64,000 nucleotides of DNA from Candidatus Heimdallarchaeota archaeon. GTDB taxonomy: Archaea; Asgardarchaeota; Heimdallarchaeia; Heimdallarchaeales; Heimdallarchaeaceae. The notes under the pieces were generated by a model. It saw nothing but the letters and a program-made list of their open reading frames with translations. It had not been told where the DNA came from and did not search any database. Shown in pieces: positions 36,470-63,863 of this stretch. The translations under genes were made by a program, and so were the position numbers. The first letter of the stretch is position 1. Each line of letters starts with the position of its first letter. Location: NCBI GenBank assembly GCA_019057375.1, contig DXJF01000011.1:32001-96000 (forward strand). The letters are read 5' to 3'.

Positions 36470-36610
36470 ATCTTGTCATTTAACTTAAATTGATTTGAGA
36501 TAAAAATCTTGCCAATGATAAGCAATAATTCTTACTTTGGCACATTATTCCTTGGGGCGTTTTAATAGTTTCTTTTAACTATTAGAGTAACCTTTCCTAA
36601 GAGTCGATGT

Positions 36611-36685
36611 ATGATGTACAATGAAAAAAATGACCCGGATGAAGGAGACGGAGACATTCTCCCCCCAGCATGGTCTCCAGGTTAA
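36611..36685 (+). CDS. 24-aa conserved micropeptide, copy 1 (MMYNEKNDPDEGDGDILPPAWSPG)
   Basis: Three copies, identical length, synonymous divergence, conserved ~60-bp upstream element. Confidence 0.75.
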   Translation: MMYNEKNDPDEGDGDILPPAWSPG

Positions 36686-36896
36686 TCCTCCTTCCTTTTT
36701 TGTTTTTACTCACTAAACTGCAATTAAACAACTTCTAAATTGTATTCAATCTTTGTAGATTAAATCAATCGAAGTAAGACTTTATGACTAAAATCTTTCA
36801 TTACTCACTTTATCATTCTTTTCTCTTGACATTTTTTCTTTGGGGTGTTTTAATAGTTTTGTTGAACTAGTAGAGTACCCTTTCCAAGAGTGAGAT

Positions 36897-36971
36897 ATGA
36901 TGTACGAACCAAAATATGATCCTGAAGGCGGAGACGAAGGTATTTTACCACCTATGTGGTTCCCAAACTGA
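36897..36971 (+). CDS. 24-aa conserved micropeptide, copy 2 (MMYEPKYDPEGGDEGILPPMWFPN)
   Basis: As copy 1; SD-like GAGTGA before ATG. Confidence 0.75.
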   Translation: MMYEPKYDPEGGDEGILPPMWFPN

Positions 36972-36976
36972 AAAAA

Positions 36977-37074
36977 TTTTAGTTGATGAACCTCTTTCTA
37001 TAGCTAGCTTCAATATTTTTCTTAACAAGAATTTTTATTGTAAACTAAAATTAGCTGACAATAACTCTCCTAGA
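36977..37074. repeat. 98-bp direct repeat, distal copy of the 23S trailer
   Basis: Identical to 47211-47308 except 2 substitutions; contains 24 of 25 nt of the 23S processing-stem 3' arm. Confidence 0.95.
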
Positions 37075-37151
37075 TAAGGTATTTATTTTTGAGATGATTA
37101 ACGGAAAAAGATAAATTTTGTCTTCTGTACTCTCAGTAACCATCTTAGTAT

Positions 37152-37763
37152 TTAATTCACTTGAGAGATTAATTCTTTTCTTTTAAATATTGAAGTATAT
37201 TTATTTTGAATTCGAGAAGTTGGTTTCCAATCTGAATTGTTATTATGTCCCTTAAAACTACGGTATACTATGCGTTTTCTGCCTTTACCATCAATGAAAT
37301 ATCCATTAAACAATACTTTTCCAAATTTCCAGTCAGTTGAATCTTTTGGGATTATAACTGAAACTATTTGAACATTTCCATTATCGGATTTTATCGGAAA
37401 TGCTTTCTCATCCTCATAATCTAGAGGAGGAGAACTCTCATAAGACGGATAGATTGCAATTTGTATCTGTAATTTAACTAAGATACTTATACTCCCAGGA
37501 TTTTTAAAACTAATACGAAGAAAATGTGTAACAATATCTTCAGAATAACGAGATTGTTTAAGCCCACTTTCTACAAGTTTTATCCAAAATATTGCTAATT
37601 TTGGTTCATTGAATCTAGTTTTTCTTCTTGTATAATATAAGCTAATGAATGATGCTACTAATGCACAAATAGATATAATGTCCAAGCTTTCCATTGTTTT
37701 GAGATCCCTATTTAAATTAATAGCATATATGAAATTTACAAATTGATTGAATGAAAGTAACAT
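37152..37763 (-). CDS. Hypothetical protein with N-terminal TM anchor
   Basis: MESLDIISICALVASFISLYYTRRK (likely true start is this internal Met), beta-rich remainder. Confidence 0.55.
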   Translation of the reverse strand: MLLSFNQFVNFIYAINLNRDLKTMESLDIISICALVASFISLYYTRRKTRFNEPKLAIFWIKLVESGLKQSRYSEDIVTHFLRISFKNPGSISILVKLQIQIAIYPSYESSPPLDYEDEKAFPIKSDNGNVQIVSVIIPKDSTDWKFGKVLFNGYFIDGKGRKRIVYRSFKGHNNNSDWKPTSRIQNKYTSIFKRKELISQVN

Positions 37764-37883
37764 GTTTCAGACAAACAATATATTACTCAAACGTATTTAA
37801 AACCCAAAAAAATTCTACTATAACTAGCTTCAAAATTCACTTAACAACTATTTTTAGTTCACAAAAAATAGTTGTATATTAAC

Positions 37884-39455
37884 TCAGTCATCTAGAGTTA
37901 TAAAATCCGTAAGAAGTTTCTGTTGAGTTGAAAATGTTCCATCTTTAAGTCTCTTAATATCATCTATTATTCTTGAAATTGTTTTTCTGTTTTGATTAGT
38001 AATTTTATGTTTTAATTGTTCAACAAGTTCGTCACTTGAAATTAAAACAAATTTCTTTTCAGAGTTATTCTTTGTTTGTGATTCTACGTACAAGCACCAG
38101 AATTTCACATTTTTGGCATATTGAGGATAAATAACTAAGTCTTTATGTGTTAATGCTAAGGGGGATTTTTTGACTTCTATAATTTCTAATGAACCATCAG
38201 GCTCTTCTATAAGTATTTCGGGTAATATCCAATTTCTTTCTTCAACCTCTGGCGTCTCAATCTTTGGTTGCCACTCCCATTTTTTTCCCTTAAATAGTTG
38301 TTGCGCAATTCTGTGACAAATCCTTTCCCATAGATATCCTATTATCTCTACACCACCCACTAGATTACAAGAAGGACACCCCGATTTGTTATGGACTCTA
38401 TTGTTGATTCTTGCTACCCACACATGTTTAGAATTTTTCGAACATTGCCACCACACTTCTCTGTGAGAACCTCCAATTACTTCTTCTGGTGTCAATCCTT
38501 CATTTTTTGTTGGATGCCACTCTTTTGCTATTTCTGGATAAAGAGTTTGTAGTGAATTAAATGGAGATAATCTTCTATGAGAACATATTGGACAACCTGT
38601 TTTATATGGCCCAGTTCTATGATATACTTTAGAATCCCACACATGTTTAGAATTTTTCGAACATTGCCACCACACTTCTTTATCAGATCCTGCTATTATT
38701 TTTTCAGCTGTAAGTTCTCCATTTAGTGTTGGATGTAGTTCTTTAGCTATTTCAGGAAATTTTGTAGCAAGAGAATTCGTAACTGAGACTTTTTTATTTG
38801 CACAACAAGGACATCCATAACCTCTTCTAGTTCTACTATCAATAACTGCTCTCCAAATATGATCTGGTCCTTTATCACAAATCCAATAAACTCTTCTTCC
38901 TGAACCAGGAGATACTTGATTTGGAAGAATCCCTCTATTCTTATCATAAAACCATTGAGCACCTATTTCTGGGAACAATGCTTCTAAAGATTCTTCTTCT
39001 AAAACTAGTTTTCCTGAACAATATGGACATCCTGATTTATTTATACCGCTTCTATCATTTATTTTAGCAGGCCAGTTATGTTTAGGGTTTTTCAAACATT
39101 GCCACCACACTTTTTCACTAGATTTCATAATTGCGTTTTCAGGAGTAAAATCTCCATTTTTTGTTGGATGCCATTCAGCTGCTACTTCTGGAAAGTTGAT
39201 TGCTAATGAATTTGTAACTGAAACTCTTTTACTAGCACAAAATGGGCATCCTGTAATTTTTTTTACTCCGGTTCTGTTGTTTGGACTAGTTGGCCATTCA
39301 TGGTCTGGTCCTTTCTCGCATTTCCACCAAATTGGTTGTTTGGAACCATAGGAAATATTTTCGGGTTTTAAGTTTCCATTTTTTGTTGGATGCCATTGTT
39401 TAACTAGTTCAGGAAAATCAGCAATAGTTTTAGTTTCAATTTTATTCTTTGACAT
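37884..39455 (-). CDS. Five zinc-ribbon (DUF4379-like) repeats + C-terminal PD-(D/E)XK-like nuclease
   Basis: 5x WHPTKN...VWWQC...H.W...R...GCPxC; C-terminal WILPEILI...IIEVKKS. Confidence 0.75.
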   Translation of the reverse strand: MSKNKIETKTIADFPELVKQWHPTKNGNLKPENISYGSKQPIWWKCEKGPDHEWPTSPNNRTGVKKITGCPFCASKRVSVTNSLAINFPEVAAEWHPTKNGDFTPENAIMKSSEKVWWQCLKNPKHNWPAKINDRSGINKSGCPYCSGKLVLEEESLEALFPEIGAQWFYDKNRGILPNQVSPGSGRRVYWICDKGPDHIWRAVIDSRTRRGYGCPCCANKKVSVTNSLATKFPEIAKELHPTLNGELTAEKIIAGSDKEVWWQCSKNSKHVWDSKVYHRTGPYKTGCPICSHRRLSPFNSLQTLYPEIAKEWHPTKNEGLTPEEVIGGSHREVWWQCSKNSKHVWVARINNRVHNKSGCPSCNLVGGVEIIGYLWERICHRIAQQLFKGKKWEWQPKIETPEVEERNWILPEILIEEPDGSLEIIEVKKSPLALTHKDLVIYPQYAKNVKFWCLYVESQTKNNSEKKFVLISSDELVEQLKHKITNQNRKTISRIIDDIKRLKDGTFSTQQKLLTDFITLDD

Positions 39456-39519
39456 CCAACCAGACCTTTCTTCTTCTTATTCCTGTATATCTAGAAGATT
39501 TTGCTTCTTAAAGTTAGTT

Positions 39520-39540
39520 TCTGATCGAACCAATTTCCAT
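39520..39540 (-). repeat. 21-nt copy of the 23S trailer (putative TnpB guide position)
   Basis: ATGGAAATTGGTTCGATCAGA vs ATGGAAATTGGTTCG-TCAGA at 47330-47310. Confidence 0.8.
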
Positions 39541-39597
39541 ACACATACTATGAAGCTCATCCAAGTTTATTATAACTTGAATAGTCTTGACGAGTAG

Positions 39598-41499
39598 TTA
39601 TCTCGTTCCCCTCGTATGTGGAGAGGGGGAATTTGATTTTAACAATTGCTCACCCTTATCTTTTACATTTTTTGCTGCATTTATGTGAGTATTCACCATT
39701 TTACCACACTTTTTACATTTTGCGATGTCATAAGAACCAATTTTTCTTTCGACTTTTCCTCCACAACCATTATGTTTTGTACTTGTTCCTCTTGGATTAA
39801 CATAAACAAGTTTAACCTTATATCCAAGTATTGAAGACGCTAATAATACTGCTTTTTCAAATATTTCTTGATTATCAGGCATATTGTATATTGCTTTAGC
39901 TAAAGCTCCTCTTTTTCCTCTAGGATCTATTTGAAAGTCTTCGACACAAAGTAGATTACTCTTATTTTTTACAATTTCAGCAGCAATGAAATGAGTTGCA
40001 AAATTTTTAATTTCTTCAAGAATGTTTTTCCTTCTTCTGTAGACTCTGTACAATTCTCCCTTAGTCTTAACATACCCTCTAGTGTCTTTCTTCTTTCCCT
40101 TATTCGTTAAACTATAGCTCAACTGAGGGATAATAACATTTGATAGTTTATTGTATTTTCTAGCTAGAAGCAACAAATTCTTTGATAAGGGCTCTTTGTT
40201 AGAAAGCGCAATCATATGTTCACTAACTCGGTTAATATCTACTCCTATGGATTTTACTTTCTTTGTACTCCCTTTCTTTGACAATTGCTTGAGAAGTTTT
40301 GTACTAAGAAACTTACTGGGAGTTCCTTCTATAATAACAGAAACTCTAACCTTATAGCTAGGTGAACTGTTGCTGCGAATGAGCAATGATCTAATTCGAG
40401 CTCCTTTGTTAAGATATTCTAAGATTTTCTTTGAAAAGATAAGCTTACATGTAATTCTAGGGAATCCTCTAAGAACGAATCCCAACTCGAAATACCCATC
40501 TTTTCTTGCAAGTTCCGTCATAACTTTTGAACTACCAGGTCTGAGAACAACATGTTTTGGACACATAATTAGTTGGATAGGTAATCTTCCTTTCTTTTTC
40601 TTTCTAAATGGTGGATGAACAATTTTAGTTGGGTGAGTTTTCTGAATTATTTCTATAACAGTCTTCTCTAATGTAGAGTAGAGTGCGAAGATCACTATTG
40701 CTCTTAAAGCAGAAAATAGTCTTCTATTTTTCTCACCTATTGATTCAGCAATTCTTTTACTTAAAAATTTCAAGCTTTTCCAACGAGAAGGATGTACAGT
40801 ATTATTCCACGAAGTAAGAAGAGGTGCTACAATATCCGCCTTTAAAGCTAACAAACGTAAGTTTTCTAGAAACACATTTGTTTTTGAATTGATTGGTTTT
40901 GATGTTAGTTCTAGGCATTTGGACTTATTACACTTCTGTATCGCTCTTTCGAATTCTTTCTGTGCTAAAAGTGGAAGCATAGTGTTGAATTTTAATCGTT
41001 GATTGCAAAATTTGTCTATTTGCCTTCTTGTACTGGTTAGTACATTGATTACATATAATCTCTTTACCTTCCATCTGTAGATAAGAATACTTTCAATTCT
41101 AGGACTTCTTCCAAAAATATACCATTCAATTGCTTGCTCTTTCCAATTCGACATTAAATCGAAAAATACTTCAACTTTCCTCTCTAAGGTAACTGTGCCT
41201 TTGGCTGCTAAAAATAAGTAAGTATATGCACTATCAGCAATACTAGGACTCTTCTTTGTGATTCTTTTGATGTTAGTTAAACCCACCATATTCGGCATTT
41301 TGGGTTCATTTCTTGCAATTGATAATGCAGCGTTTATTGCCTTTTTATCATGAATTAAATCTTCTTGTCTGACTTGCAAACCTTTTACTCTTTGGTTAGC
41401 TTCTTTTTCTTGTATTCTACGTTTCTCTCTAGTACCCTCAAACCTAACACCCATTTGATAAGTGCGAGTGACTAATGTTTGCTTTGTTTGAGAGGACAT
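39598..41499 (-). CDS. tnpB: Large TnpB-like RuvC protein (633 aa), no TnpA
   Basis: RuvC-I SIGVDIN, RuvC-II CVEDF, Zn finger HNGC...CKKC, RuvC-III NTHINAAKN (His at the Asp position); hairpin-rich 3' end. Confidence 0.85.
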   Translation of the reverse strand: MSSQTKQTLVTRTYQMGVRFEGTREKRRIQEKEANQRVKGLQVRQEDLIHDKKAINAALSIARNEPKMPNMVGLTNIKRITKKSPSIADSAYTYLFLAAKGTVTLERKVEVFFDLMSNWKEQAIEWYIFGRSPRIESILIYRWKVKRLYVINVLTSTRRQIDKFCNQRLKFNTMLPLLAQKEFERAIQKCNKSKCLELTSKPINSKTNVFLENLRLLALKADIVAPLLTSWNNTVHPSRWKSLKFLSKRIAESIGEKNRRLFSALRAIVIFALYSTLEKTVIEIIQKTHPTKIVHPPFRKKKKGRLPIQLIMCPKHVVLRPGSSKVMTELARKDGYFELGFVLRGFPRITCKLIFSKKILEYLNKGARIRSLLIRSNSSPSYKVRVSVIIEGTPSKFLSTKLLKQLSKKGSTKKVKSIGVDINRVSEHMIALSNKEPLSKNLLLLARKYNKLSNVIIPQLSYSLTNKGKKKDTRGYVKTKGELYRVYRRRKNILEEIKNFATHFIAAEIVKNKSNLLCVEDFQIDPRGKRGALAKAIYNMPDNQEIFEKAVLLASSILGYKVKLVYVNPRGTSTKHNGCGGKVERKIGSYDIAKCKKCGKMVNTHINAAKNVKDKGEQLLKSNSPSPHTRGTR

Positions 41500-41633: not shown

Positions 41634-44093
41634 CTATGATAATTTTAACCAGAATTCAAAATCATCTAAAACTTTGATGTGTTTGTCTCCTACGATTACA
41701 TCTGCAAGAATTTCCAAAGGAATTTCCTCGTTATGTCCTTGGCTTTTAGCTTGAATTATATTCAGAGTGAAATCCCAATCATATGACCTTTTATTATCTA
41801 ATAACAGTTTCTTGATCTCCTTTAAACCTTTTATTCTAATCTCATCGTCATTTTCATGAGCATAAAGATAGAAGTAGTACTCTAATTCAATCGATTCTTT
41901 AAATCTTGATTTTTCTATGTACTTCATAGCTTTATCTAGGTATTCAAACCCTTCTTCCCTTCCTTGAGAAAGAAGTAAAGATGCATAATTAATCAAGTTA
42001 TTTGCATTTTCAGAATCTATCTCATTTGCTTTGTTAAAATACTTCTCAGACATTTCAAGATTCTTGAAATCATGATACATTAGCACTGCAAGTTGTCCCC
42101 AAATCTCTGCATTCTTAGGTTCAATTTTTATTGCTTTCTTCAAATGGGATTCAGCCTTTTTATAATCATTATAAATCTTAGACACGAAATATGAATAATT
42201 ATAATGACCAAATGCATTGTTTGAATCTAACTCAAGTGCCTTCTTATACATCTTTTCTGATTCTGAATAGCGTTTCACTCTTTTCTGCAGGAATATAGCA
42301 TAATAAACATAGTACGTAGAATTTTCTGGAGATTTCTCAATTGCCTCTTTTAGGTATCTCTCCGCTTTTTTATAATCTCCTAATTTCTCTGAATAAAAAT
42401 ATCCTATATCTAGAATATATTCAGCATTTTCAGGATTCAAAACTAGTGCTTGATTATAATATGAATTAGCTTTTTTGATATCCTCTCTTGAATAAGCTAG
42501 AAACCTTGCATAATTTAAAACTCCACGTGAATAATTAGGATTTGTATCAATTGTTTTTTCAAAATACTCCTCCGCTAGATTATAGTTTTTCCGAATTTTT
42601 TCTTGAAATAAAGCATAACCTTCTAAAATTGTTGGCATATTAGGAGATATTTCTAAGGCTCGTTTGTAATACTCTTCAGCCTTTTTATAGTTTTCATCAT
42701 CCTTGACAATTTCCCATAAAAAGCCTGCGTAATTACTTAGGTTTGCAGAACTGTGTGGGTTCAATTCCAATGCTAATTTGTAGAATTCTTCTGCTAATGT
42801 GTGATTCCCCACTATTCTATGCAGGAAACTTGCATAATTTACTACTAAAGCTGGAAATTTTGGGGCAACAGATAGTGCTCTTTTGTATATTTTCTTTGCC
42901 TTTTCGATGTTTAATGTAGACTGTAGGAAGAAAGCATAATTAGTTAAAAGATTGATATTATTTCCAAAGATTTTCAGACCACTTTCATAAATGTCAATGG
43001 CTTTATCAGGATTCTTCCATTTCCATTCGGCAGCCTTCAACTCAACGTATTTCCAAGCTAGTAATTCTTCGCTTAGTTCAGATAAAGCAAACGAAAAAGC
43101 TACTGAAAATTTCTTTTGTTCCTTCGGATTTTTTTGTTCAATATCTTTTGGTATCTCTCCTAATCGTTCATAAAATTGATTAATAAGTCCTTCAATTCTT
43201 TCTTTGTCTGGAAGTTTCAAAGAAAATTCCTTTAGAATCAATAGCATTAGTTCATCAAAATCTCTATGCTGTATCCATACACCATCCCTATCTTTAATCC
43301 AATTACCTAGTTTGGTGTTTGGAAACTCATTTCCTATCCAATAAACTCCCCATGGAAGAGCGCTTTCGGGGAGTTTTGAAAGAATTTCGGCTATGCTCCC
43401 GTCATTTCCACCATATCCCATGAATATAAGTCCTGTATCAGAAAGAACCTTTTGAATAGCTACTTTAGTGTTTTTTGCAAGAGTCTTAGTTTCAATTTCT
43501 GTATTTTTTGGCTCAAGTCTAGCATCACCATGAAGTTTAATGACTAAAGGTTTCACCCTCGAAGATCTTACAAAACCTGCTAAAGTGTCATGCACAATTA
43601 CAAGTGGTTTTTTATTTGTGTATAGATATAATGCATCTGCAATTAAATCATCAAAATTGACAGTCAAAGCTACATTACAATGCTTTCCATATTTTTCATC
43701 TGACATTAAACAAGAAAGGACACCATAACCAAATCCTGGATCTTTTTTATCAATTATGTTCTCAATTTCCTTTTGCCTTTCTTCAGGTTTATGAAATAAT
43801 AATTGAATTATTTTACCATAAAATAAAGCTGCTTGAGAGTCATCATAATTTGGGAGAATCTCTTTGATATTTTGAAGAGAATAATCTGCATCTTTTCCTT
43901 TTCTCTGCCTAATTAATCGAAAGAGCCATCTTTTTGCGAGTTCTCCTGCTGTTGGAATACCTGAAGAAACAGAACACCCCGCTCCAAGAAAGAACACATA
44001 TTTGCATTCTTCATAATTATCCATATTGTATTTGATTTTTCTTATGAATTCTTCAATATCCATCTTTTTTATTTCTATATTTGCTCCTTCCAT
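41634..44093 (-). CDS. SIR2-like domain + TPR array, putative antiviral NADase
   Basis: FFLGAGCSVSSGIP, TVNFDDL, IKLHGD, FMGYGG; many TPRs of type AEEYYKRALEISP. Confidence 0.85.
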   Translation of the reverse strand: MEGANIEIKKMDIEEFIRKIKYNMDNYEECKYVFFLGAGCSVSSGIPTAGELAKRWLFRLIRQRKGKDADYSLQNIKEILPNYDDSQAALFYGKIIQLLFHKPEERQKEIENIIDKKDPGFGYGVLSCLMSDEKYGKHCNVALTVNFDDLIADALYLYTNKKPLVIVHDTLAGFVRSSRVKPLVIKLHGDARLEPKNTEIETKTLAKNTKVAIQKVLSDTGLIFMGYGGNDGSIAEILSKLPESALPWGVYWIGNEFPNTKLGNWIKDRDGVWIQHRDFDELMLLILKEFSLKLPDKERIEGLINQFYERLGEIPKDIEQKNPKEQKKFSVAFSFALSELSEELLAWKYVELKAAEWKWKNPDKAIDIYESGLKIFGNNINLLTNYAFFLQSTLNIEKAKKIYKRALSVAPKFPALVVNYASFLHRIVGNHTLAEEFYKLALELNPHSSANLSNYAGFLWEIVKDDENYKKAEEYYKRALEISPNMPTILEGYALFQEKIRKNYNLAEEYFEKTIDTNPNYSRGVLNYARFLAYSREDIKKANSYYNQALVLNPENAEYILDIGYFYSEKLGDYKKAERYLKEAIEKSPENSTYYVYYAIFLQKRVKRYSESEKMYKKALELDSNNAFGHYNYSYFVSKIYNDYKKAESHLKKAIKIEPKNAEIWGQLAVLMYHDFKNLEMSEKYFNKANEIDSENANNLINYASLLLSQGREEGFEYLDKAMKYIEKSRFKESIELEYYFYLYAHENDDEIRIKGLKEIKKLLLDNKRSYDWDFTLNIIQAKSQGHNEEIPLEILADVIVGDKHIKVLDDFEFWLKLS

Positions 44094-44140: not shown

Positions 44141-46858
44141 TTAGAGATGTTTTATTGAATCTTCATTTATTTCTCTTTTACATTTGGGACAAATAGTTTT
44201 AACTTTCATCCATTCTTGAAGATGATTGTTATGAAACGTATGACCACAATCTATTATGTAGACTAAATTTTCTTCTGCTACCATGTAATTCAAACATATT
44301 TCACACTTTCTTGTTTTCTTTCCACAGTTTAAACAAATAAGTGGTCCTCCATCCTTTACTCTTTCAAGCAAAGCATCGCAGAAGTAACAGAATAACTTTT
44401 CATCTTGCTTCTTAATATTGCCAACAGTGCTTTTCTCTTCAGTGATTTTTACCTCTTTCTTAGGATTTTCTTGTAGTCTACTCTGTTTAATTTTTCTGAG
44501 TACTACTCCTTGATTTGTGAAAAACTCTGCAAGTGAAGGTTTGCTCTGTTCCTTTTTCTGCTTTCCAAATCTCATATATCCTATAAACAATATGAAAAAT
44601 AATCCAGAAACAATAACTGACCACGGAAATAGCTTTCCAGAATTATTCTTCTTCAGATAGCTGAATAACAACCATCCAGATATAAAGAAAACATATTTTG
44701 CATATCTGAAAAGGAACTTGTTTTTACTATGAAGATCTTTGTAGAAGGTATTTGTAGAAGAGTTGACTACTACTGAAAACCAAAAGAAAGTAGAAGCAAA
44801 TAGTATGGTTGTAAAAACATTGAACGAGATTTTACCCAAGATAACAAATTCAAACCCAGTATTATCACTGTTAGCTATTGAAACTAATCTCCCAAGAATC
44901 AGAAAGAATCCCACGTTCTTCAGGATTACAAAAACAGCTGCTAATCCCAGTAATACTTTTCTCATGTTACCTAAAATACTGAAATTGAAGAAACGCTCTG
45001 TTTTAATATATCCTCCATTGAATTGAAGTTCGTATTCTTCATCATCAAGTTTTACTTTAGCATTCCTGTTTGTTTCTTTGTTTTTCTTTTCTAAATGTCT
45101 TACTAAAACAATTAATGCTATTGCATCTAGAATGAGACTAATGCTCATTAGAGTTGGTAATGAAGGTTTGAAAGGTTTTGAGTCACTGCTTGGGTTAGGA
45201 AGTTCAAAGGGGTTCGTCGGTGTGACAACTTCTTCAGAAGTAGCTGCGAGTCTGTAGCTAAGCTCCCCTATTGTAACCGATAAACCTTCACCATAGATTG
45301 ATAATATTATTTCTATTTCTTGATAACCTTGGTTAATTTCTATGATTACTCTATCATTGATCGTTTGTTTATCATTGAATGATTGAAAGAAAACCTGATT
45401 ATCGTTTATCTTAATTCGCAGATTGAATTGATCAACAGAAGAGTAAAATTCGTTGTATAAATTCAAGGAGAAAGAAAGATTGAAGGTAGTTGAAGAAGAA
45501 TCAAAATAGAAAACATCTGTGAATTTAACTGTTAAAGGTCCTGTAATTGATGTTTCATAAGTTTTTGAGGAGACCATCGTTTTTTCTAGAGTGCTATTTT
45601 CATCAAGTATAGGAACGGGCTCTATTTCAATAGTACTGGTATTGAGTAGGTAAAAAATACCCTCTCCTGTTGCTATTCCATAAACCCGAAAAGCAATATT
45701 AGAGGAGTAATTTACAGTGTAGGTATCAATAATACTTTCAGGATAGCTGAAATGAATAGCCCCTGAATAGATGACATCGGAATCCGAAAGAATTTCATAA
45801 TTTAAAATAGGTAAGATTGCTGAACCTATATAATCATAATATAACGAAATGAACAAATTCTGTTCACTAATGCTAGAAAAAGGTTTTAGTGATGATAAAT
45901 CAAAGGAATGGTCTACTGAAGGGCCATCGCAGGAAAACCAATCAAAAGATTCTTCTGGAATTTCGTCTTCGAGAAGTTGGAGTTCTCCAAACAAAGCTAT
46001 ATTAGTAAACCATATCTCATCTACACCTAGGTTAACACAGAAATAGAAACGGATTATGTTCGTCCCCTGCTCTAACGGAATAGAAAAAGAGACAATAACA
46101 AAAGGAACTTTAGAAAAACTTGTAGTAGCGATGATTGTGTTATTTATTTCTACTTCTAAATATCGAGAAAGGGCACTAAAGGAATTTGTATTAAAAGAAA
46201 GAGTTACGTTTAAAGTGGTGGAACCATTGATTGAATAAACTGCTGTTTCAACATAATCACTTCTGACACCTGAAAGATCTCCATAATAGCCTATTTGACC
46301 AGGATTACAAGGAAGGGAGGTTAAATTCTTATCAAGAACAGGAATTGTAATTGGTTCTATTGTTGATGAACTTAATATTTGAATAGCGCCAGAATTAAGG
46401 ATATTCGAAGTTTTACCTTCACATGAAATAACAATAATCATTGAACCGATGAAGTTTTGAGGATAAGAAAATGATTTAGAAATAGAGTGTTCATTAGAAT
46501 CCTGATAAATACGGTTAATGTTAATTTCTACTTCAGTAGTGTCCAAATACAAAATAATCGTTAATCCATTTGAGTCAGTCCTATCACCAGAAAAGAGAAA
46601 AAATATAGTTAAACTATTATATTCTTGAAGTTCAAGATTGACTAGTTCAAAAGTAAAATTTTGTTTTACAGAAGTTGAGTCATAAGAATACAGTATATTT
46701 TCATCTATTATAGTAGAGCTATAAATAGAAGGGGGATTAGGAACGTTATTTTGATTTCTTGCAATAGCTAAAGAACTAGTAAAACAAAAGAGTGTTAACA
46801 CTAATAACATGTTTCTAGTTGTGTTTTTCATTATCAGTTTTATAATCCGAAAATTCAT
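44141..46858 (-). CDS. Signal-peptide/ectodomain multi-TM protein with C-terminal Zn ribbon and RING-H2-like finger
   Basis: ~520-aa beta-rich ectodomain, ~5 TM helices, CEIC...CGHTFHNNH..W....CPKC; likely true start ATG 46831. Confidence 0.8.
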   Translation of the reverse strand: MNFRIIKLIMKNTTRNMLLVLTLFCFTSSLAIARNQNNVPNPPSIYSSTIIDENILYSYDSTSVKQNFTFELVNLELQEYNSLTIFFLFSGDRTDSNGLTIILYLDTTEVEININRIYQDSNEHSISKSFSYPQNFIGSMIIVISCEGKTSNILNSGAIQILSSSTIEPITIPVLDKNLTSLPCNPGQIGYYGDLSGVRSDYVETAVYSINGSTTLNVTLSFNTNSFSALSRYLEVEINNTIIATTSFSKVPFVIVSFSIPLEQGTNIIRFYFCVNLGVDEIWFTNIALFGELQLLEDEIPEESFDWFSCDGPSVDHSFDLSSLKPFSSISEQNLFISLYYDYIGSAILPILNYEILSDSDVIYSGAIHFSYPESIIDTYTVNYSSNIAFRVYGIATGEGIFYLLNTSTIEIEPVPILDENSTLEKTMVSSKTYETSITGPLTVKFTDVFYFDSSSTTFNLSFSLNLYNEFYSSVDQFNLRIKINDNQVFFQSFNDKQTINDRVIIEINQGYQEIEIILSIYGEGLSVTIGELSYRLAATSEEVVTPTNPFELPNPSSDSKPFKPSLPTLMSISLILDAIALIVLVRHLEKKNKETNRNAKVKLDDEEYELQFNGGYIKTERFFNFSILGNMRKVLLGLAAVFVILKNVGFFLILGRLVSIANSDNTGFEFVILGKISFNVFTTILFASTFFWFSVVVNSSTNTFYKDLHSKNKFLFRYAKYVFFISGWLLFSYLKKNNSGKLFPWSVIVSGLFFILFIGYMRFGKQKKEQSKPSLAEFFTNQGVVLRKIKQSRLQENPKKEVKITEEKSTVGNIKKQDEKLFCYFCDALLERVKDGGPLICLNCGKKTRKCEICLNYMVAEENLVYIIDCGHTFHNNHLQEWMKVKTICPKCKREINEDSIKHL

Positions 46859-47210
46859 TTATAAACTGAGTAAAACCATATTTACTATATCTGAATCTTG
46901 TTGGGTTTAAATAGATATTTTGCATTTCATTATTGAGATAGATGTTCGTAATTACATTCCTTAAGTCTTTAAGATCAAAGAAAAAAGGGGGACCTATTCT
47001 AGAAGAGATTCTACTTATTGGTATAGCAGTTCTTGTCTTTGCAATAATCTTTGCACTAATTTTTAGCTTAATAGATTGGTCTACATCTCCTTTTGAAGAA
47101 CTTTTCAAGTGAAGAGTTTTTTCTTTCAATTTCAAGAAACTTAGACTTTTAGTGGGTTTATAAGGGGAATTACTATATTTTCTTTGAAGCTAGCAATACG
47201 CAAGATAACA

Positions 47211-47308
47211 TTTTAGTCGATGAACCTCTTTCTATAGCTAGCTTCAATATTTTTCTTAACAAGAATTTTTATTGTAAACCAAAATTAGCTGACAATAACT
47301 CTCCTAGA
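47211..47308. repeat. 98-bp direct repeat, proximal copy (native 23S trailer)
   Basis: Matches 36977-37074. Confidence 0.95.
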
Positions 47309-47309: not shown

Positions 47310-47671
47310 TCTGACGAACCAATTTCCATTTTTCCTAACTACGCTTGAGCAATTAGTGATTGTGGGCTAAACATCTCGCCGAAGCTCGACGCGTACACCC
47401 CAATTCTATCAACCGGATCTTCTTTCCGCGCTCTCATCTATATCGAAGGTTACTGTCACCAGTCCCCTTATAGTGATACAGAGTGGGTGACTCGTTTCGA
47501 GAGTAGCTTCGAGCGTTGATGCATTCCGCTCTTATCTACGAGGGCTTAGCTACCCGGCGATACCCTTTAGGATAACCGGTACACCAGAGGCCCCAGCCGC
47601 CTGTTCCTCTCGTACTGTGGAGACTTTACTCTCAATCACCCGCCAGCACCATCAGATAGAATCCAACCTGT

Positions 47672-47826
47672 TTTGCGTGAATTTAAGCCCGAGTATTGAT
47701 CTTCGATAGAAGGGATTTCCCGTAAGGGGGGTTTACAACTATCAAAGACTTTTACATACTTGGATGAAGTTCAATTGAAGTATTACTACTATACTTCTAC
47801 AGAACTCCACTATAGCTTAAATCCAT
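47672..47826 (-). other. 155-nt BHB intron in 23S (about E. coli G2599/A2600)
   Basis: Removal restores GUGAG|ACAGG; UGUG/CGCA central helix, AGA and AAA bulges, 11-bp intron stem. Confidence 0.88.
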
Positions 47827-47975
47827 CTCACAACGGTCTAAACCCAGCTCACGTTCCCTTTTAATGGGCGAACAACCCCACTCTTGGCGGCTGAATCACC
47901 ACCAAGCTAGGAAGAGCCGACATCGAGGTAGCAAGCCGTGAGGTCGATGTGAACTCTTACCCACGACAACTCCGT

Positions 47976-48364
47976 TCAGGGCTGCGCTTGCGCTATGCGC
48001 ACATCGGCTTTAAGGATCAGTTGTCACCTGGTATAACGACATAGGCAGTTACATAATCCTTAACCTTATCTTCATGTCCTCACGCTTATTTTTGGCTCTC
48101 CATCTTTCGTGTTTATTTAGGGATTTATCTATTCTAAATGGATTTGTGACAGAAATTAGATTCACTCTGCTCAAGTTTTGTAGCCTTTTAATGGCGAAAA
48201 CTTTCGTTTCCTCACGTGGAAGAAAGACTGAAGCTATAATTAAATTCACTCAATTTTACTTTTCTGCCTCGGAAAAGATGGACTTTATCAATAAGCGTTA
48301 CAGACAGAGAGCACTCTTTGTGATAAACAATCACTTCTTCGTGATAAACACTCAGAAGCGCAGT
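47976..48364 (-). other. 389-nt intron in 23S (about E. coli A2450/A2451), BHB junctions
   Basis: Removal restores GGGGUA|ACGG; GGGG/CCCU helix, UAA and GAA bulges, CUGCGCUU/AAGCGCAG stem. Confidence 0.88.
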
Positions 48365-50934
48365 TACCCCTGGAGTAACTTTTCTGCCACCTCCGCCGCC
48401 TACTAATGGCACTGCGAAGGATCGCTAGGCCCTGCGTTAACATCTGCGAACTGTATTGGTGAGTTCACAGTCAACCGAGCTTTTGCCCTTGCACTCTTCA
48501 CCGGATTTCTGTCCCGGTTGAGCTCGGCTTTGGGCCCTCTTGATATCTTTTCAAGAGGCTACCGCCCCAGTGAAACTGCCAGGCAGGGGGTGTCCCCCTC
48601 GCAAGAGGTAAGTCGTACCAATGCGCAAGGTCAGTATTTCAAGTTCGACTCCCCTACATCCCGGAGAATGTAGGATCAGCATCTCCTGACTATGCTATGC
48701 ATGCACACCAATACAACAGCCCCTGACAGCAGTAAAGCTTCACAGGGTCTTCTCTTCCCGATGGTGCGCTCCAGACTGTTCGCTGGACTGTGGGTTCAGT
48801 AGGCTTCGGGTGGAGACAGTGGGCACCTCGTTGGTCCCTTCATGGACGTCTGTAATTAGCAGACAAGGCATTTGCCTACCTTAAGAAGCTCATAGTTAGC
48901 TCCGGCGTTTACTGGGTCTTAGCCTGGTTGAACCCAGGTTTCAATCACCAGCACCGGCCAGGATTCACTAACTGTACTAAGGCTTTCGCCCTTGCAGTTA
49001 GCTATGTTTTTATTAAACAGTCGGGTGCCCCTAGTCACTGCGACCTGGTAAGGCATACACCTTCCCAGGCATCCCTTATACCCAAGGTACGGGACTAATT
49101 TGCCGATTTCCTTCACCCGAGCTCCCCTAACACGCTTTAGCCTTCTAAGCTAGCCACACCTGTGTCGGTTCTGGGTACGGTCACGCGTAATCGTTCTCTT
49201 TGCTTTTTCATGGGCTGTTGGGGTTGATGGCAGCCAGCAACCTATGGCCGGCCTCTTCATCTATTCTTCTGGTTCTCACCTTAACGGTTCTTCCCAGAAT
49301 TCTATAATTTAACTAGGATATGCTCCTAGGCCACCTACCCACCAGCGTTAGCTCAGAGCTTGCGTCGCCGCGTCTATACGCGTGGTACAGGAATATGAAC
49401 CTGTTTCCCTTTCGAACGACTCGTTTTAAGATCGTCCTTAGGACCGACTAACCCTTGGCTGACGAACAGTGCCAAGGAACCCTTGGGCTTTCAGCGATGA
49501 GGATTCTCACCTCACTATGCTCCTACTACCACCGAGATCTGCAAATCTAATCGGTCCACTGGGAATCACTCCCCAGCTTCTGCCCAACCAGATCGCCCCC
49601 CTACCTGAGACTCTTGCGGAGTCCAAATGGGTATCGGGACCCGGTTTAGCCCCGTCCATTTTCTGAGCCCAACAACTCGATGAGTAAGCTGTTACGCTTT
49701 TTTTAACGGATAGCTGCCTCTAAGCTTACCGCCTCATTGTCTTAGTCGTTGGACGTCATTCTGTTTAACATTTAACCGGGATTTAGGGCCCTTAACCCAT
49801 TGTAGGGTTGTTCCCCTTTCGGCCATATCCCTTGCGGATACGCGCCCGTCTGTCGCCTTCTACAGCGCTTGCAAGTTCGGAGTTGGAAGGGAGGGTGAGG
49901 ATTTCACTCCCCAGAACCTCCCGTCCGTAGCTCTACCTCACAAGCCGCCTTCAGCGACGCTATCCTGTGGTGATACTTCGGGGGGAACCAGCTATCAGCA
50001 GTTTAGATTGGTCTTTTGCCACTATCCCCAACTCAGAGGAATGAATTGCATATCAATAACCCTTCAGGCCTCCACGCTCCTTTCGAAGCGCTTCACCTTG
50101 GTCAGGGATAGATCAACTGCTTTCGGGTCTTACACCTGTGACTTCACGCCCTTATCGGACGTCGCGCCTTGCCGAAGCTGCGCGCTGGTCGCTTTCGCTA
50201 CGCCACCGTATTAACTTAGGCTTGCCACAGACATAAACTCCTCGGCCCGTGTTTCAAGACGGAACGGATAACTCTGGTCCTCTCAGCTCGTACTACCACC
50301 TCACGATGGGTTCCTTCACCGAGACTCTACCCTTTCAAGCCATCCACGTCTGTTACCATGTAGTTTCAGGGACTTTTCACTCTCGTATTTCGAATACTTT
50401 TCAACTTTCACTCACGTTACTAGTGCGCTATCGGTCTAGGGGAGTATTTAGGCTTGGGAGTTAGTCCTCCCATATTTGCGCGACAAATCCAAGCCACGCT
50501 AGTCTTGATACTACTAAGCCGAGCGCTTACGTTTACGGGGTTATTACCCTCTATGACGCCCCTTTCCAGGGGCCTTCAACTTCACGCTTTCGGTCTATGT
50601 TGTAGTCAAAACACCACATCTACCTTAATTTTTCAAAAAAGGAATTCGGTTTGGCCTGTTCCGGTTTTACTCGCCGTTACTACCGGAATCACAATTGTTT
50701 TCTTTTCCTGCAGGTACTTGAATGTTTTGGTTCCCTGCGTTCCCCGCCATTACTGGCTGTTACAGTTTATTAGACTGTAACCGGAAATCCGATTCGGGAA
50801 TCTGTGGATCGTAGACTGTCTGCGTCTTCCCACAGCGTTTCGCCGCTTACCGCGCCCTTCATCGGCTCCCTAGCCGAGTCATCCACTACATGGCGTATGC
50901 ATAGTGTAGGTTACTCTAGAAATCAGTTTTCGCC

Positions 50935-50959
50935 TTCTAGGAGAGTTATTGTCAGCTAA
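50935..50959. other. 5' arm of pre-23S processing stem
   Basis: Inverted complement of 47285-47309. Confidence 0.85.
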
Positions 50960-51226
50960 CTAAACGTAATCGTTTAGGGATTATCATAAATCCTGGAGGT
51001 GATAAACACGCAAACTATTGCGCGAGTAGGGTTTTTATTCCCTTTGTTTATAATTGTTCCGTTTTTGAACATAATCGCAATCTTTCTGATCGCGTTCCTA
51101 CCCGTTAAGGTAAGATACAACAGATAAGCAAACATCGATAGATATTCACATTATCAACAAAATGAGCTATAGATAAAAAGGTATTGTTTTAAGATAAAAT
51201 TTCCTTAAAGCTACGGAAGATTTTTA

Positions 51227-52780: not shown

Positions 52781-52855
52781 TTAAGCTGGTGACCAAAATG
52801 GTGGAGTTATGCTTTCGTCGCCATCTTCAGGATCGTATTTCGGTTCATTCATCAT
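52781..52855 (-). CDS. 24-aa conserved micropeptide, copy 3 (MMNEPKYDPEDGDESITPPFWSPA)
   Basis: Same length, motif and upstream element as the copies at 36.6 and 36.9 kb. Confidence 0.75.
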   Translation of the reverse strand: MMNEPKYDPEDGDESITPPFWSPA

Positions 52856-53035
52856 GTTCATCTCAGGAAAGGTTATCATTTTAGTTAGACAAAGCTATTA
52901 AAGCACCCCAAAGAAAAGACTGACAGTTACAGCTATTTCTGATTGGAAGAGTTGGCTAATAGATAATTGGCTTGATGAGTTTGAAAGATTAAAACCTTAT
53001 TTTCTTAATTCAGAGCAATTATGACAACTAAAAAA

Positions 53036-53093
53036 CTCCAAGGAATACAAGAACCCCGAGAGAAAGATTCTACAGAAGTAGAGAAATAAGGGG
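53036..53093 (-). repeat. R1: degenerate copy of the 16S trailer stem arm
   Basis: AATACAAGAACCCCGAGA identical in R1, R2 and R3, followed by CTACAGAA.TAGAGAA. Confidence 0.85.
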
Positions 53094-56323: not shown

Positions 56324-56679
56324 ACAAATATCATCTTTTTTGTTTATTTCAATAAAGTTTGAAATTAAATATCGAATTCAACTTAATCTATATGTTATTT
56401 TTTACAAAGCTACTTAAATGCTTTTTTTTCTATTGGTAAAGATGAAAAATTAATATTTATAGATAAATGGAAACCTTTTGAAGATTTTGAGAGAAATATG
56501 AATAAGTTGTTAGAAACTCTAGAAGTATTAATTTAAGATATCATATTGAGAGAAATATAAGTAAAACCTGAATAAGTTAATTATATAGATATATGGATGA
56601 ATGCTAATTTGTTGGAAGAATTTACTTCAATTAAACATTATTTTTACTAAAATAAATTTCAAACTATGAAGAATAAATA

Positions 56680-56789
56680 CCCCCAAATAATACAAGAACC
56701 CCGAGAATAAGATTCTACAGAAGTAGAGAATAAAGGGTTGGGGTTGGGAAGTCTTGAAAACTTCCGAACGTAGGAGGTGATCCATCAGC
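56680..56789 (-). repeat. R2: degenerate copy of the 16S 3' end (anti-SD) plus trailer
   Basis: 56762-56789 matches 62343-62370 at 26/28 incl. GGATCACCTCCT; trailer arm at 56680-56737. Confidence 0.9.
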
Positions 56790-62181: not shown

Positions 62182-62207
62182 TATTCAATTTGGGTGAAAT
62201 AAAAAAG

Positions 62208-62266
62208 CCCCCAAAGAATACAAGAACCCCGAGAGAATGACACTACAGAAATAGAGAATATAAGGG
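62208..62266 (-). repeat. R3: native 16S trailer incl. 3' arm of the leader-trailer stem
   Basis: 62239-62258 pairs with leader 63973-63994 (7 bp, 2-nt bulge, 13 bp). Confidence 0.85.
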
Positions 62267-62351
62267 GACTTCTTTCGAAGCCAGAGTTGGTCATAACAAG
62301 GCCTAAAAACAGGCCCTGCATGATCAAGGAATCCTTGAAGGATTCCAAACG

Positions 62352-63863
<1,512 letters not shown>

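Follow-up and report, generated by a model that had tools for sequence, protein, structure and literature searches.

A candidate homing guide for the 23S rRNA trailer in a transposase-less TnpB cassette of a Heimdallarchaeota archaeon

A 21-nt copy of the start of the 23S rRNA trailer directly follows the scaffold of a tnpB-like gene. Sequence comparison suggests that this copy is probably the omegaRNA guide segment in a TnpB cassette that has no transposase, and that it might be a guide, carried by the element itself, for homing to the 3' end of a stable-RNA gene. Since tnpB lies within a 10-kb block of accessory genes inserted at that very spot, the guide would most likely mark and defend the landing site of the block, rather than regulate rRNA. 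All positions refer to the window, which is the whole stretch of DNA analysed (64,000 nucleotides).

The TnpB-like protein

The gene and the residues discussed below are as follows.

39598..41499, minus strand: tnpB-like gene encoding 633 aa; RuvC residues D421, E520, and H605; zinc finger H576-C579-C595-C598

The 633-aa protein matched the Pfam family Cas12f1-like_TNB (PF07282) with 32.6 bits (cut-off 26.3), and PADLOC also returned Cas12f matches. A Foldseek search with the AF2 model (pLDDT 84.6) identified AsCas12f, CnCas12f1, ISFba1 TnpB, and ISDra2 TnpB, all with a probability of 1.0 and with E-values down to 5e-9. The protein has the TnpB/Cas12f fold and is accompanied by an omegaRNA-like scaffold. 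The fold, together with the scaffold boundary described below, supports the proposal of an earlier note on this DNA that a TnpB-like protein has a trailer match at its guide position.

In RuvC-III, NTHINAA was aligned to NADYNAA of a solved Cas12f; the catalytic Asp is replaced by His (H605), as the earlier note had read it. The canonical D-E-D triad is thus not present: D421 and E520 are retained, and the third position is H605. This position is His in 50 of 53 homologues, the HCCC zinc finger (H576, C579, C595, C598) is conserved in 52, and overall D421, E520, H605, and the zinc finger are kept in 50-53 of the 53. The D-E-H site with the HCCC finger is a trait of the family. A conserved His in RuvC-III is already known from other TnpB clades. 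This family-wide conservation speaks against the idea that the D-to-H change hints at a dead, TldR-like derivative. The length of 633 aa, once regarded as unusually large, is ordinary in this Asgard family, whose members have 630-650 aa. The tnpB paralogues in the genome are 41-47% identical to the query; no near-identical copies were found there.

The scaffold, the guide position, and the trailer target

The elements at the 3' end of tnpB and at the 23S trailer are listed below.

39541..39630, minus strand: omegaRNA-like scaffold, overlapping the tnpB stop codon; from paralogue and homologue alignments and covariation
39630-39625 / 39612-39606, minus strand: scaffold stem 1
39605-39602 / 39594-39591, minus strand: scaffold stem 2
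39579-39574 / 39567-39562, minus strand: scaffold stem 3
39556-39541, minus strand: conserved scaffold tail
39520..39540, minus strand: guide position; repeats the beginning of the 23S trailer over 21 nt, including an extra A at guide position 16
47310..47329, minus strand: resident target, the first 20 nt of the functional 23S trailer and inner arm of the pre-23S processing stem
50917..50961, minus strand: 23S leader arm pairing with the trailer (27-bp helix plus inner helices)

The tnpB stop codon is at 39600-39598, and the trailer match starts at 39540, which agrees with the spacing of 57 nt first reported. The three hairpins described after tnpB are real. Compensatory changes were found at 11 of 16 predicted pairs of stems 1 and 2 (15 homologues); the stem 3 hairpin is kept at the same position, and its length varies. 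Similarity of the scaffold among 10 paralogues and ~30 homologues ends just past the conserved tail, here ...CTTCATAGTATGTGT, at most 1-2 nt from the start of the trailer match. That the match begins at a boundary set by these paralogues and homologues supports a homing guide, as far as alignments can indicate.

Rfam places the 23S end at 47333, and the trailer copy starts 4 nt beyond the gene. The match comprises 20 of 21 bases with one extra A, so that the 20-nt trailer match with a single 1-nt indel stands. Within the window, exact copies of the 15-mer ATGGAAATTGGTTCG exist only at 39526-39540 and 47315-47329, both on the minus strand; a shuffled-sequence control gave 0.24 hits even with two mismatches tolerated. 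Past the extra A of the tnpB-side copy, both trailer copies read TCAGA. The guide-position sequence is identical across four independent assemblies. Guide position 9 is T, where the trailers of all sampled relatives have C, and the extra A at position 16 is absent from every sampled trailer; therefore, a perfectly matching target is not known. The extra A may blunt attack on the host's own trailer, which retains a perfect 15-nt match to the guide.

In a cofold of leader and trailer, 47313-47328 is paired with 50917-50934, and the three nucleotides 47310-47312 form a bulge. The point at which the 21-mer ends coincides with the trailer-side bulge of the bulge-helix-bulge cut site, and also with the cutting distance of TnpB.

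Anatomy of the insert at the 23S locus

A 10.2-kb strain-specific insert lies between two trailer repeats. It carries the RING, SIR2-TPR, tnpB, and DUF4379 genes and a 203-aa ORF, with the following parts.

47210..47308, minus strand: direct repeat copy A; 63 nt of trailer, in which the 27-bp processing helix has its 3' strand, and the initial 36 nt of the cassette left end
36976..37074, minus strand: direct repeat copy B; 96% identical to copy A (99 nt), with conserved downstream genes next to it
47185..47245, minus strand: cassette left end; hairpin kept in five genomes (folds)
44141..46858, minus strand: cargo gene whose 905-aa product has a RING finger at its C-terminus; synteny with tnpB is kept in G010 and G011
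41634..44093, minus strand: cargo gene for an 819-aa SIR2_2 + TPR protein, a defence-type SIR2 (Pfam)
37075..39519, minus strand: 2.4-kb segment separating the 21-mer from the remaining copy B
37884-39455, minus strand: DUF4379 gene, inside the 2.4-kb segment
37813-37847, minus strand: degenerate third trailer/left-end junction, inside the 2.4-kb segment
37152-37763, minus strand: 203-aa ORF, inside the 2.4-kb segment

All cargo genes are on the rRNA strand, directly downstream of 23S. The SIR2_2 + TPR protein matched the pAgo-associated SIR2 of PADLOC (E = 2e-35). Both ends of the cassette are structured, with the hairpin on the left and the scaffold on the right, and the same left boundary recurs in G010, G011, G018, and G024.

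According to the earlier note, similarity to the trailer stops after the 21-mer. This is true locally; however, the trailer continuation at 47308-47210 recurs at 37074-36976, 2.4 kb beyond the 21-mer, with 96% identity. A displaced trailer copy of 120 nt begins with the 21-mer. That similarity ends behind the 21-mer, which had been taken as guide length, is caused by the 2.4-kb segment with the DUF4379 gene that splits this copy. The DUF4379 unit also occurs elsewhere in G001 and G009, and its homology begins at ~39514.

The same continuation, in the same orientation, refutes a chance resemblance of AT-rich stretches, which is left with a negligible probability. The genome is AT-rich, and matches of 13-16 nt to other guides are common; however, the exact 15-mer is followed by five further matching bases and starts at the scaffold boundary. 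A one-step insertion at the trailer start was also considered and rejected: it does not reproduce the observed order of pieces, whereas a single crossover within the repeated segment does. Single-base differences assign copy A to the cassette type and copy B to the native type of G013; a crossover near the left edge of the repeat would leave this pattern.

In the same window, the 16S gene has the same kind of tail-repeat cassette array, with three tail copies and without TnpB or scaffold. A resident TnpB is therefore not required for such arrays to form, or to persist.

The element might also be a passive relic or passenger, a reading that we consider rather unlikely. The tail-repeat arrays would have arisen in some other way, for example through an unlinked recombinase or by simple homologous recombination; an insertion sequence with TnpB would have landed at the start of a spare trailer copy, and its guide would be role-less and decaying. 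The earlier note had offered a similar alternative, a remnant of insertion into a trailer copy, and the 21-mer does begin a displaced copy. The TnpB-free 16S array fits such a history, as do the absence of near-identical tnpB copies in the genome and the extra A, which spoils the match to all known trailers. The 21-mer (20/21) is also no better kept than the adjacent 99-nt repeat (96%), so that it bears no sign of special selection. On the other side, tnpB is intact with all conserved residues present, the scaffold is intact and covarying, and the relatives described next also speak against a relic.

Empty sites and relatives at tRNA-Cys

Clean empty sites were found in G018 and G011, where the 23S trailer is directly joined to the genes at window position 36975 and below. 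At the same trailer, G013 has one repeat unit only, and G024 retains the left end and ~314 nt of the cassette. The host cassette (47254-39653) is 73% identical to G010:C45 over 7.7 kb, and the RING part reaches 84% identity to G011:C4, where the left boundary is the same. In sister genomes, the RING/SIR2-TPR/tnpB cassette adjoins tRNA-Cys, and its 20-nt guide resembles the tRNA-Cys D-arm. The tRNA-Cys locus of the host genome (G000) is an empty site for the G011 cassette. The G011 insert is 5.3 kb long and flanked by a ~36-nt repeat (the tRNA 3' end); its guide is internal, at a distance of ~26 nt from this repeat.

In the phylogenetic tree, a monophyletic tRNA-Cys clade forms the sister group of the C12 protein; tRNA-Asn-like or tRNA-Pro guides occur in other subclades. 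Within the tRNA-Cys clade, the 20-nt guide is conserved in nine genomes; the DNA immediately after it is not conserved. The same cassette has been retargeted between tRNA-Cys and the 23S trailer, in one direction or the other, presumably by exchange of the 20 guide bases. The suggestion that the guide targets cargo to this site fits these observations: a 10.2-kb insert lies exactly there, and the cassette with the tRNA-Cys guide lies at tRNA-Cys in the sister genomes.

Compared with foreign or unoccupied alleles, the tRNA-Cys guides agree at 15-18 of 20 positions, including exact runs of 17 and 18 nt; compared with the allele of their own host, they agree at only 10-16 of 20. This better fit to foreign alleles argues that a matching target is harmful, and hence that the D-E-H RuvC enzyme may be active. 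A passive relic would not lead one to expect a 20-nt guide kept in nine genomes beside DNA that is not kept, own alleles that are selectively mismatched, or a cassette that retains a stable-RNA guide despite a change of target.

The TnpB-omegaRNA complex could instead be a self-directed regulator, binding the resident 23S trailer DNA (15 matching bases, then a bulge) without cutting, and modulating read-through, rRNA 3' processing, or expression of the cargo downstream of the rRNA promoter. Such a role is improbable, although the catalytic Asp is replaced, nuclease-dead TnpB repressors are known (PMC10705468), the cargo lies in line behind the 23S gene, and the resident target offers a perfect 15-nt seed with the same upstream bases as in relatives. 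The D, E, and H residues are conserved across the family and not eroded, and the C-terminus is untruncated, unlike that of TldR. The arrangement is also strain-specific and missing from the closest relatives, so that no conserved host function is apparent. In addition, the guide has the same sense as the pre-rRNA and therefore cannot pair with the trailer RNA. The regulation of rRNA that had been suggested thus found no evidence in its favour beyond that intact 15-nt match.

Mobility genes, junctions, and TAM

A search covering one genome for each of 185,579 species and the JGI metagenomes found no second scaffold/23S-trailer junction. The guide part of the search pattern accepted every trailer variant encountered in the genus; the scaffold tail was given as TTCAT, three free bases, ATG, and three free bases, and misses other tail variants of the homologues, such as those with TTG for ATG.

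No TnpA, integrase, or Cas1 linked to the tnpB family was found. The Y1 TnpA family (PF01797) had no match in the genome, which is 89% complete. The genome has four resolvase genes, all on other contigs and unlinked to tnpB, and no resolvase was found in the 87 loci examined, ~30 of which carry tnpB homologues. With no recombinase linked, an assignment of the family to the IS607 type finds no support. A guide-capture architecture of the aCas1 type was rejected, since the single Cas1 of the genome is unlinked to tnpB and the motif GTTCACTCA, which follows the variable region in the aCas1-linked Asgard TnpB (Altae-Tran 2023), occurs in 0/34 flanks.

No common TAM motif is shared by the 5' flanks of the tRNA-Cys and 23S targets. 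AAAAT precedes the cassette left end in three of four genomes, and would also precede the 23S target if the guide started 2 nt later; it was dropped as a TAM because tRNA-Cys targets lack it.

A model for homing of the cassette

The model builds on what the comparison established: the anatomy of the insert, the existence of empty sites, a cassette that has changed its target between tRNA-Cys and the 23S trailer, and, in the tRNA-Cys relatives, a guide internal to the insert. To these we add, by inference, a cleavage activity, a TAM, and a route of repair. The mobile unit would consist of the left-end hairpin, the cargo (RING and SIR2-TPR), tnpB, and the scaffold. Its guide copies the 20 trailer nucleotides that flank the repeated segment on the 23S side. 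Lying there, the target stays single-copy and attached to the working rRNA gene. The TnpB-omegaRNA complex might recognise unoccupied trailers and cut ~20 nt from the target start, which is the edge of the repeated segment. The 21-mer and the remaining copy B part company ~21 nt from the guide start, the same distance at which ISDra2 TnpB cleaves the target strand (PMC8612924). The cut could then be repaired from element-bearing DNA via the short shared segment. Repair might install the cassette (homing or Campbell-type insertion), or restore it after loss. The guide would now be an internal, inherited part of the element; it probably originated as flanking DNA, when an older insertion entered a trailer copy.

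Several observations count against homing. The perfect 15-nt match in the resident trailer is unlike the clear self-immunity of the tRNA-Cys clade, and there is no linked TnpA, integrase, or Cas1 to account for the joining step. The mismatches of the guide to known trailers, the lone scaffold/23S-trailer junction, and the TnpB-free 16S array also weigh on this side.

A wider version is put forward tentatively, as less likely than the homing guide itself. The His-site Asgard TnpB lineage might be the targeting device of integrase-free cassettes, each sublineage having a guide to one stable-RNA gene (tRNA-Cys, tRNA-Asn-like, tRNA-Pro, or the 23S trailer). A cut beside a short shared segment would admit the cassette by recombination, and repeated rounds could build the arrays found behind rRNA and tRNA genes of these archaea. 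Such cassettes would be an RNA-guided counterpart of integrase attachment sites, and their guides a natural transition from flank-derived to inherited ones.

Comparison with known systems

The TnpB/omegaRNA elements of IS200/IS605 and IS607 (ISDra2 TnpB, PMC8612924; ISFba1 TnpB, PDB 8iaz) share the TnpB/Cas12f fold with the Asgard protein. In both, the guide-RNA scaffold begins within the 3' end of the gene and gives way sharply to the guide, whose sequence is that of the DNA adjoining the right end, and a role in homing or retention via cutting of unoccupied sites is proposed. However, there is no TnpA near the Asgard tnpB and no Y1 gene in the genome, the resolvase genes being unlinked; the protein has 630-650 aa instead of ~400, a His for Asp in RuvC-III, and an HCCC zinc finger; and the unit carries large cargo genes. 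The IS200/IS605 and IS607 elements make no target duplication and have the immediate flank as guide, whereas 99-nt repeats are present here, and ~36-nt repeats with an internal guide in G011.

The replacement of the RuvC-III Asp by a conserved His is also found in the RIIIr branches, some of which are nearly exclusive to archaea; conserved RuvC-III rearrangements were read as probably active (Altae-Tran et al. 2023 PNAS, PMC10691335). The D-to-H branch RIIIr-4 is without a C4 zinc finger (PMC10691335), unlike the Asgard family with its conserved HCCC finger. The TnpB described here also differs from the aCas1-linked Asgard one, having neither an adjacent Cas1 nor its motif in the 34 flanks.

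Integrase-borne islands at tRNA 3' ends likewise duplicate the 3' end of the stable-RNA gene on insertion and accrete in tandem, and homing endonuclease genes in rRNA genes likewise encode a nuclease that recognises the unoccupied allele. The Asgard cassette has no integrase, and recognition would be by an RNA guide, not by a protein. TldRs are without RuvC residues and have a shortened C-terminus. They are TnpB derivatives found in bacteria that have lost nuclease activity and, like the Asgard protein, have a guide matching a host locus (PMC10705468). The Asgard family differs from them by keeping the D, E, and conserved H at full length, and by occurring in strain-specific inserts instead of a conserved host-gene context. 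Type V-K CRISPR-associated transposons are reported to have homing guides that target tRNA attachment sites (bioRxiv 10.1101/2021.02.06.429022); as in the cassette, the end of the element encodes a guide dedicated to its attachment site next to a stable-RNA gene. These transposons combine nuclease-dead Cas12k with Tn7 transposition proteins, whereas the Asgard cassette is without transposition genes.

If the homing model is true, TnpB would do more than retain a small insertion sequence. It would anchor a cargo cassette at a fixed address, the end of an essential RNA gene, with neither integrase nor transposase. The system is compact and testable, as the guide, the target, and the empty site are all known. 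It would bear on whether the D-E-H RuvC site is an active nuclease, and on how guides ceased to be taken from the flank and became inherited, which is a move in the direction of CRISPR-like systems. It would also bear on how, in the closest archaeal relatives of eukaryotes, accessory and defence genes come to collect behind rRNA and tRNA genes.

The trailer match and its displaced copy

Archaeal 23S and 16S rRNA genes were identified in the window with Rfam. The 15-mer ATGGAAATTGGTTCG starts at 39540, 57 nt past the tnpB stop codon. Its second and only other copy in the window lies at 47329-47315, 4 nt beyond the 23S end; 0.24 hits were expected by chance in shuffled sequence (2 mismatches tolerated). 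Past the 15-mer, the tnpB-side copy has one additional A, and both copies then read TCAGA. The identical sequence, including the extra A, is common to four independent public assemblies, and therefore the 21-mer is not an assembly artefact. The match is real and above chance. The features are as follows.

62353-63863 (-): 16S gene
47333-50910 (-): 23S gene
47308-47210: trailer continuation, copy A of the 99-nt direct repeat
47254-39653: cassette (RING, SIR2-TPR, tnpB)
39598-41499 (-): tnpB, 633 aa
39520-39540 (-): 21-mer, putative guide
37813-37847: degenerate third trailer/left-end junction
37074-36976: copy B of the repeat

The cofold assigned the trailer equivalent of the 21-mer to the processing stem as its inner arm, and a 3-nt bulge lies at 47310-47312; the label "BHB arm" in the earlier note is reasonable. 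That note also stated that similarity stops after the guide length, which missed the continuation. A genus search with the 23S end and trailer as query showed that copy A recurs as copy B (96% identity, same orientation), and the 3' strand of the 27-bp processing helix falls within the recurring stretch. Together, the 21-mer and the 99-nt piece form a single displaced trailer copy, split by a 2.4-kb segment. This segment contains a DUF4379 gene with five internal repeats, the degenerate junction, and a 203-aa ORF. The DUF4379 unit is also found elsewhere in two genomes of the genus (G001 and G009), and homology starts within ~6 nt of the 21-mer end. In one public NCBI assembly (locus L089, 6109-8563), the interval from tnpB to the 203-aa ORF is ~620 nt longer, and the DUF4379 gene was not called; the difference may be due to repeat-number variation or mis-assembly.

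In the relatives G018 and G011, the trailer is directly joined to the genes of window 36975 and below. The closest relative, G013, has a single repeat unit, which is what a recombination of one repeat with the other would leave; G024 retains the cassette left end and ~314 nt. These empty or reduced sites indicate a strain-specific insert of 10.2 kb, bracketed by the repeats. A ~120-nt repeat family (77-79% identical) is located just past both rRNA-tail arrays (36833-36952, 36545-36666, and 52814-52917), with one copy fewer in G013. The 23S gene is longer than its model (3578 nt vs 2987 positions), so it contains intron-like or expansion inserts. One 154-nt stretch within it (47672-47825) is absent from G002, G004, G005, G008, G019, and G023, and present in the closest relatives.

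The TnpB-like protein and its scaffold

The only Pfam match of the 633-aa protein is the Cas12f1-like TNB domain, and its AlphaFold model (pLDDT 84.6) matches Cas12f, ISFba1 TnpB, and ISDra2 TnpB in Foldseek. HMMER aligned NTHINAA with NADYNAA of Cas12f, so the RuvC-III Asp is replaced by His, as the earlier note had read. Among 53 distinct homologues, D421 is invariant, E520 is found in 52 and H605 in 50, and a zinc finger (H576-C579-C595-C598) is conserved. Homologues are Asgard and measure 626-653 aa; a source name was available for 2 of the top 20 matches (Heimdallarchaeota for one, Thorarchaeota for the other). Altae-Tran et al. (2023) described a conserved Asp-to-His change in RuvC-III, and argued that conserved rearrangements indicate retained activity (PMC10691335). 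Together with the conservation of H605, this makes the His a trait of the lineage and no mark of a dead copy; the "possibly dead" reading was not upheld. The RIIIr-4 branch of that study lacks the zinc finger, whereas this family has one, and hence does not belong to that branch as described (PMC10691335). Outside this family, the genome contains 17 further TnpB-type genes (TNB domain), with open frames mostly of 418-571 aa (range 131-752).

Each of the 24 genomes sampled from the genus has family members, and the genome of the window contains 10 full-length paralogues (41-47% identity). Alignment of the 3' regions of paralogues and homologues showed a conserved RNA-like scaffold across the stop codon, ending in a conserved tail, beyond which no relatedness was found. 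Compensatory changes support two scaffold stems (11 of 16 predicted pairs). In the window copy, the last base of the tail is 39541 and the trailer match begins at the next one, 39540, which supports the proposed guide position.

The guide and the pre-rRNA are of the same sense, so pairing of the guide with the trailer RNA is impossible, which speaks against rRNA regulation, a minority reading. The extra A is in none of the sampled trailers, and a T shared by guide and resident trailer is a C in all sampled relatives; no perfect target thus exists among the sampled trailers. The resident trailer offers 15 perfect bases. The native guide of ISDra2 is ~16 nt (PMC8612924), and by analogy self-binding or self-cutting may occur there. 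Either an escape change or decay might account for the extra A.

Related cassettes at tRNA-Cys

The cassette shares 73% identity with G010:C45 across 7.7 kb, and its RING part 84% with G011:C4. The left boundary, where a conserved hairpin is formed, is common to G010, G011, G018, and G024. In these relatives the cassette adjoins tRNA-Cys(GCA), and the 20 nt past the scaffold resemble the tRNA-Cys D-arm. In the window's genome (G000), the tRNA-Cys locus represents the site of the G011 cassette in its empty state. The G011 insert (5.3 kb) is flanked by a ~36-nt repeat that consists of the final 27 nt of the tRNA and 9 further nt, with a foreign allele on the left and the native one on the right. 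Its guide is inside the insert, ~26 nt from the repeat, and is therefore an inherited internal part in the tRNA-Cys clade, not a flank. Guides of this clade agree with alleles that are foreign or unoccupied in 15-18 of 20 positions (with uninterrupted matches of 17 and 18 nt), vs only 10-16 for the own host allele; several hosts have D-loop insertions. This difference suggests selection against self-targeting, and hence, indirectly, an enzyme with an action on matching DNA.

In the FastTree phylogeny, the sister group of the window's protein is the tRNA-Cys clade, which is monophyletic. Subclades next to them have tRNA-Asn-like and tRNA-Pro guides, and in a subfamily further away the guide position is mostly taken by ordinary flanks. 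No further 23S-trailer-guided member was found with a scaffold-tail/trailer pattern in one genome for each of 185,579 species and in JGI metagenomes; the pattern reduced the tail to TTCAT, three free positions, ATG, and three free positions, and misses known variants such as TTG for ATG.

At locus L085 (G018:C113, 5990-6110), two elements stand in tandem: the scaffold end of the first with its tRNA-Cys-like guide, then a 27-nt tRNA-Cys 3' fragment, then the left end of a second cassette, a case of cassettes accreting at one tRNA. An intron-containing tRNA-Val(GAC) is upstream of one paralogue (G000:C65:38335-38443 and 40657-40770). At the guide position of this paralogue is a partial copy of that tRNA-Val without the intron, and the intron breaks the guide match after 13 nt.

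Proposed insertion mechanism and function

At both loci the cassette lies just past the 3' end of an RNA gene, the insert is bracketed by two copies of the 3'-terminal segment, and the guide matches the gene part directly inside the duplicated segment. A circular form of the element might recombine with the chromosome by a single crossover within the shared segment. Such a crossover reproduces the piece order at both loci, and also the pattern of single-base changes that separates the repeat copies. ISDra2 TnpB makes its target-strand cut at 20-21 bp from the TAM (PMC8612924). By analogy, a cut would fall where the 21-mer meets the repeated segment, the position at which a break would best promote the crossover. 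Searches of the G000 contigs and homologue loci found no transposase or integrase linked to the family, and no linked Cas1 (the single Cas1 of G000 is unlinked). In the G000 genome (89% complete) no Y1 transposase was detected, and its four resolvase genes are all on other contigs.

The SIR2-TPR cargo protein (41634-44093) matches SIR2 domains linked to prokaryotic Argonaute defence systems (E = 2e-35). A defence gene is thus probably part of the cassette.

The window has three copies of the 16S 3' end with its trailer (52939-53093, 56672-56789, and 62111-62370; 75-84% identical). Between them lie two cassettes, one with an ORF of 1647 aa and the other with one of 1045 aa, which explain the 11-kb distance between 16S and 23S. 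No TnpB gene or scaffold was found in this array, and therefore resident TnpB is not required for such arrays to exist. A decaying relic is a serious rival explanation, favoured by these three TnpB-free tail copies and by the extra A if it is decay. Most likely, the function is to home a cargo cassette to the 3' end of the 23S gene or to retain it there, and the 21-mer is part of a coherent family behaviour.
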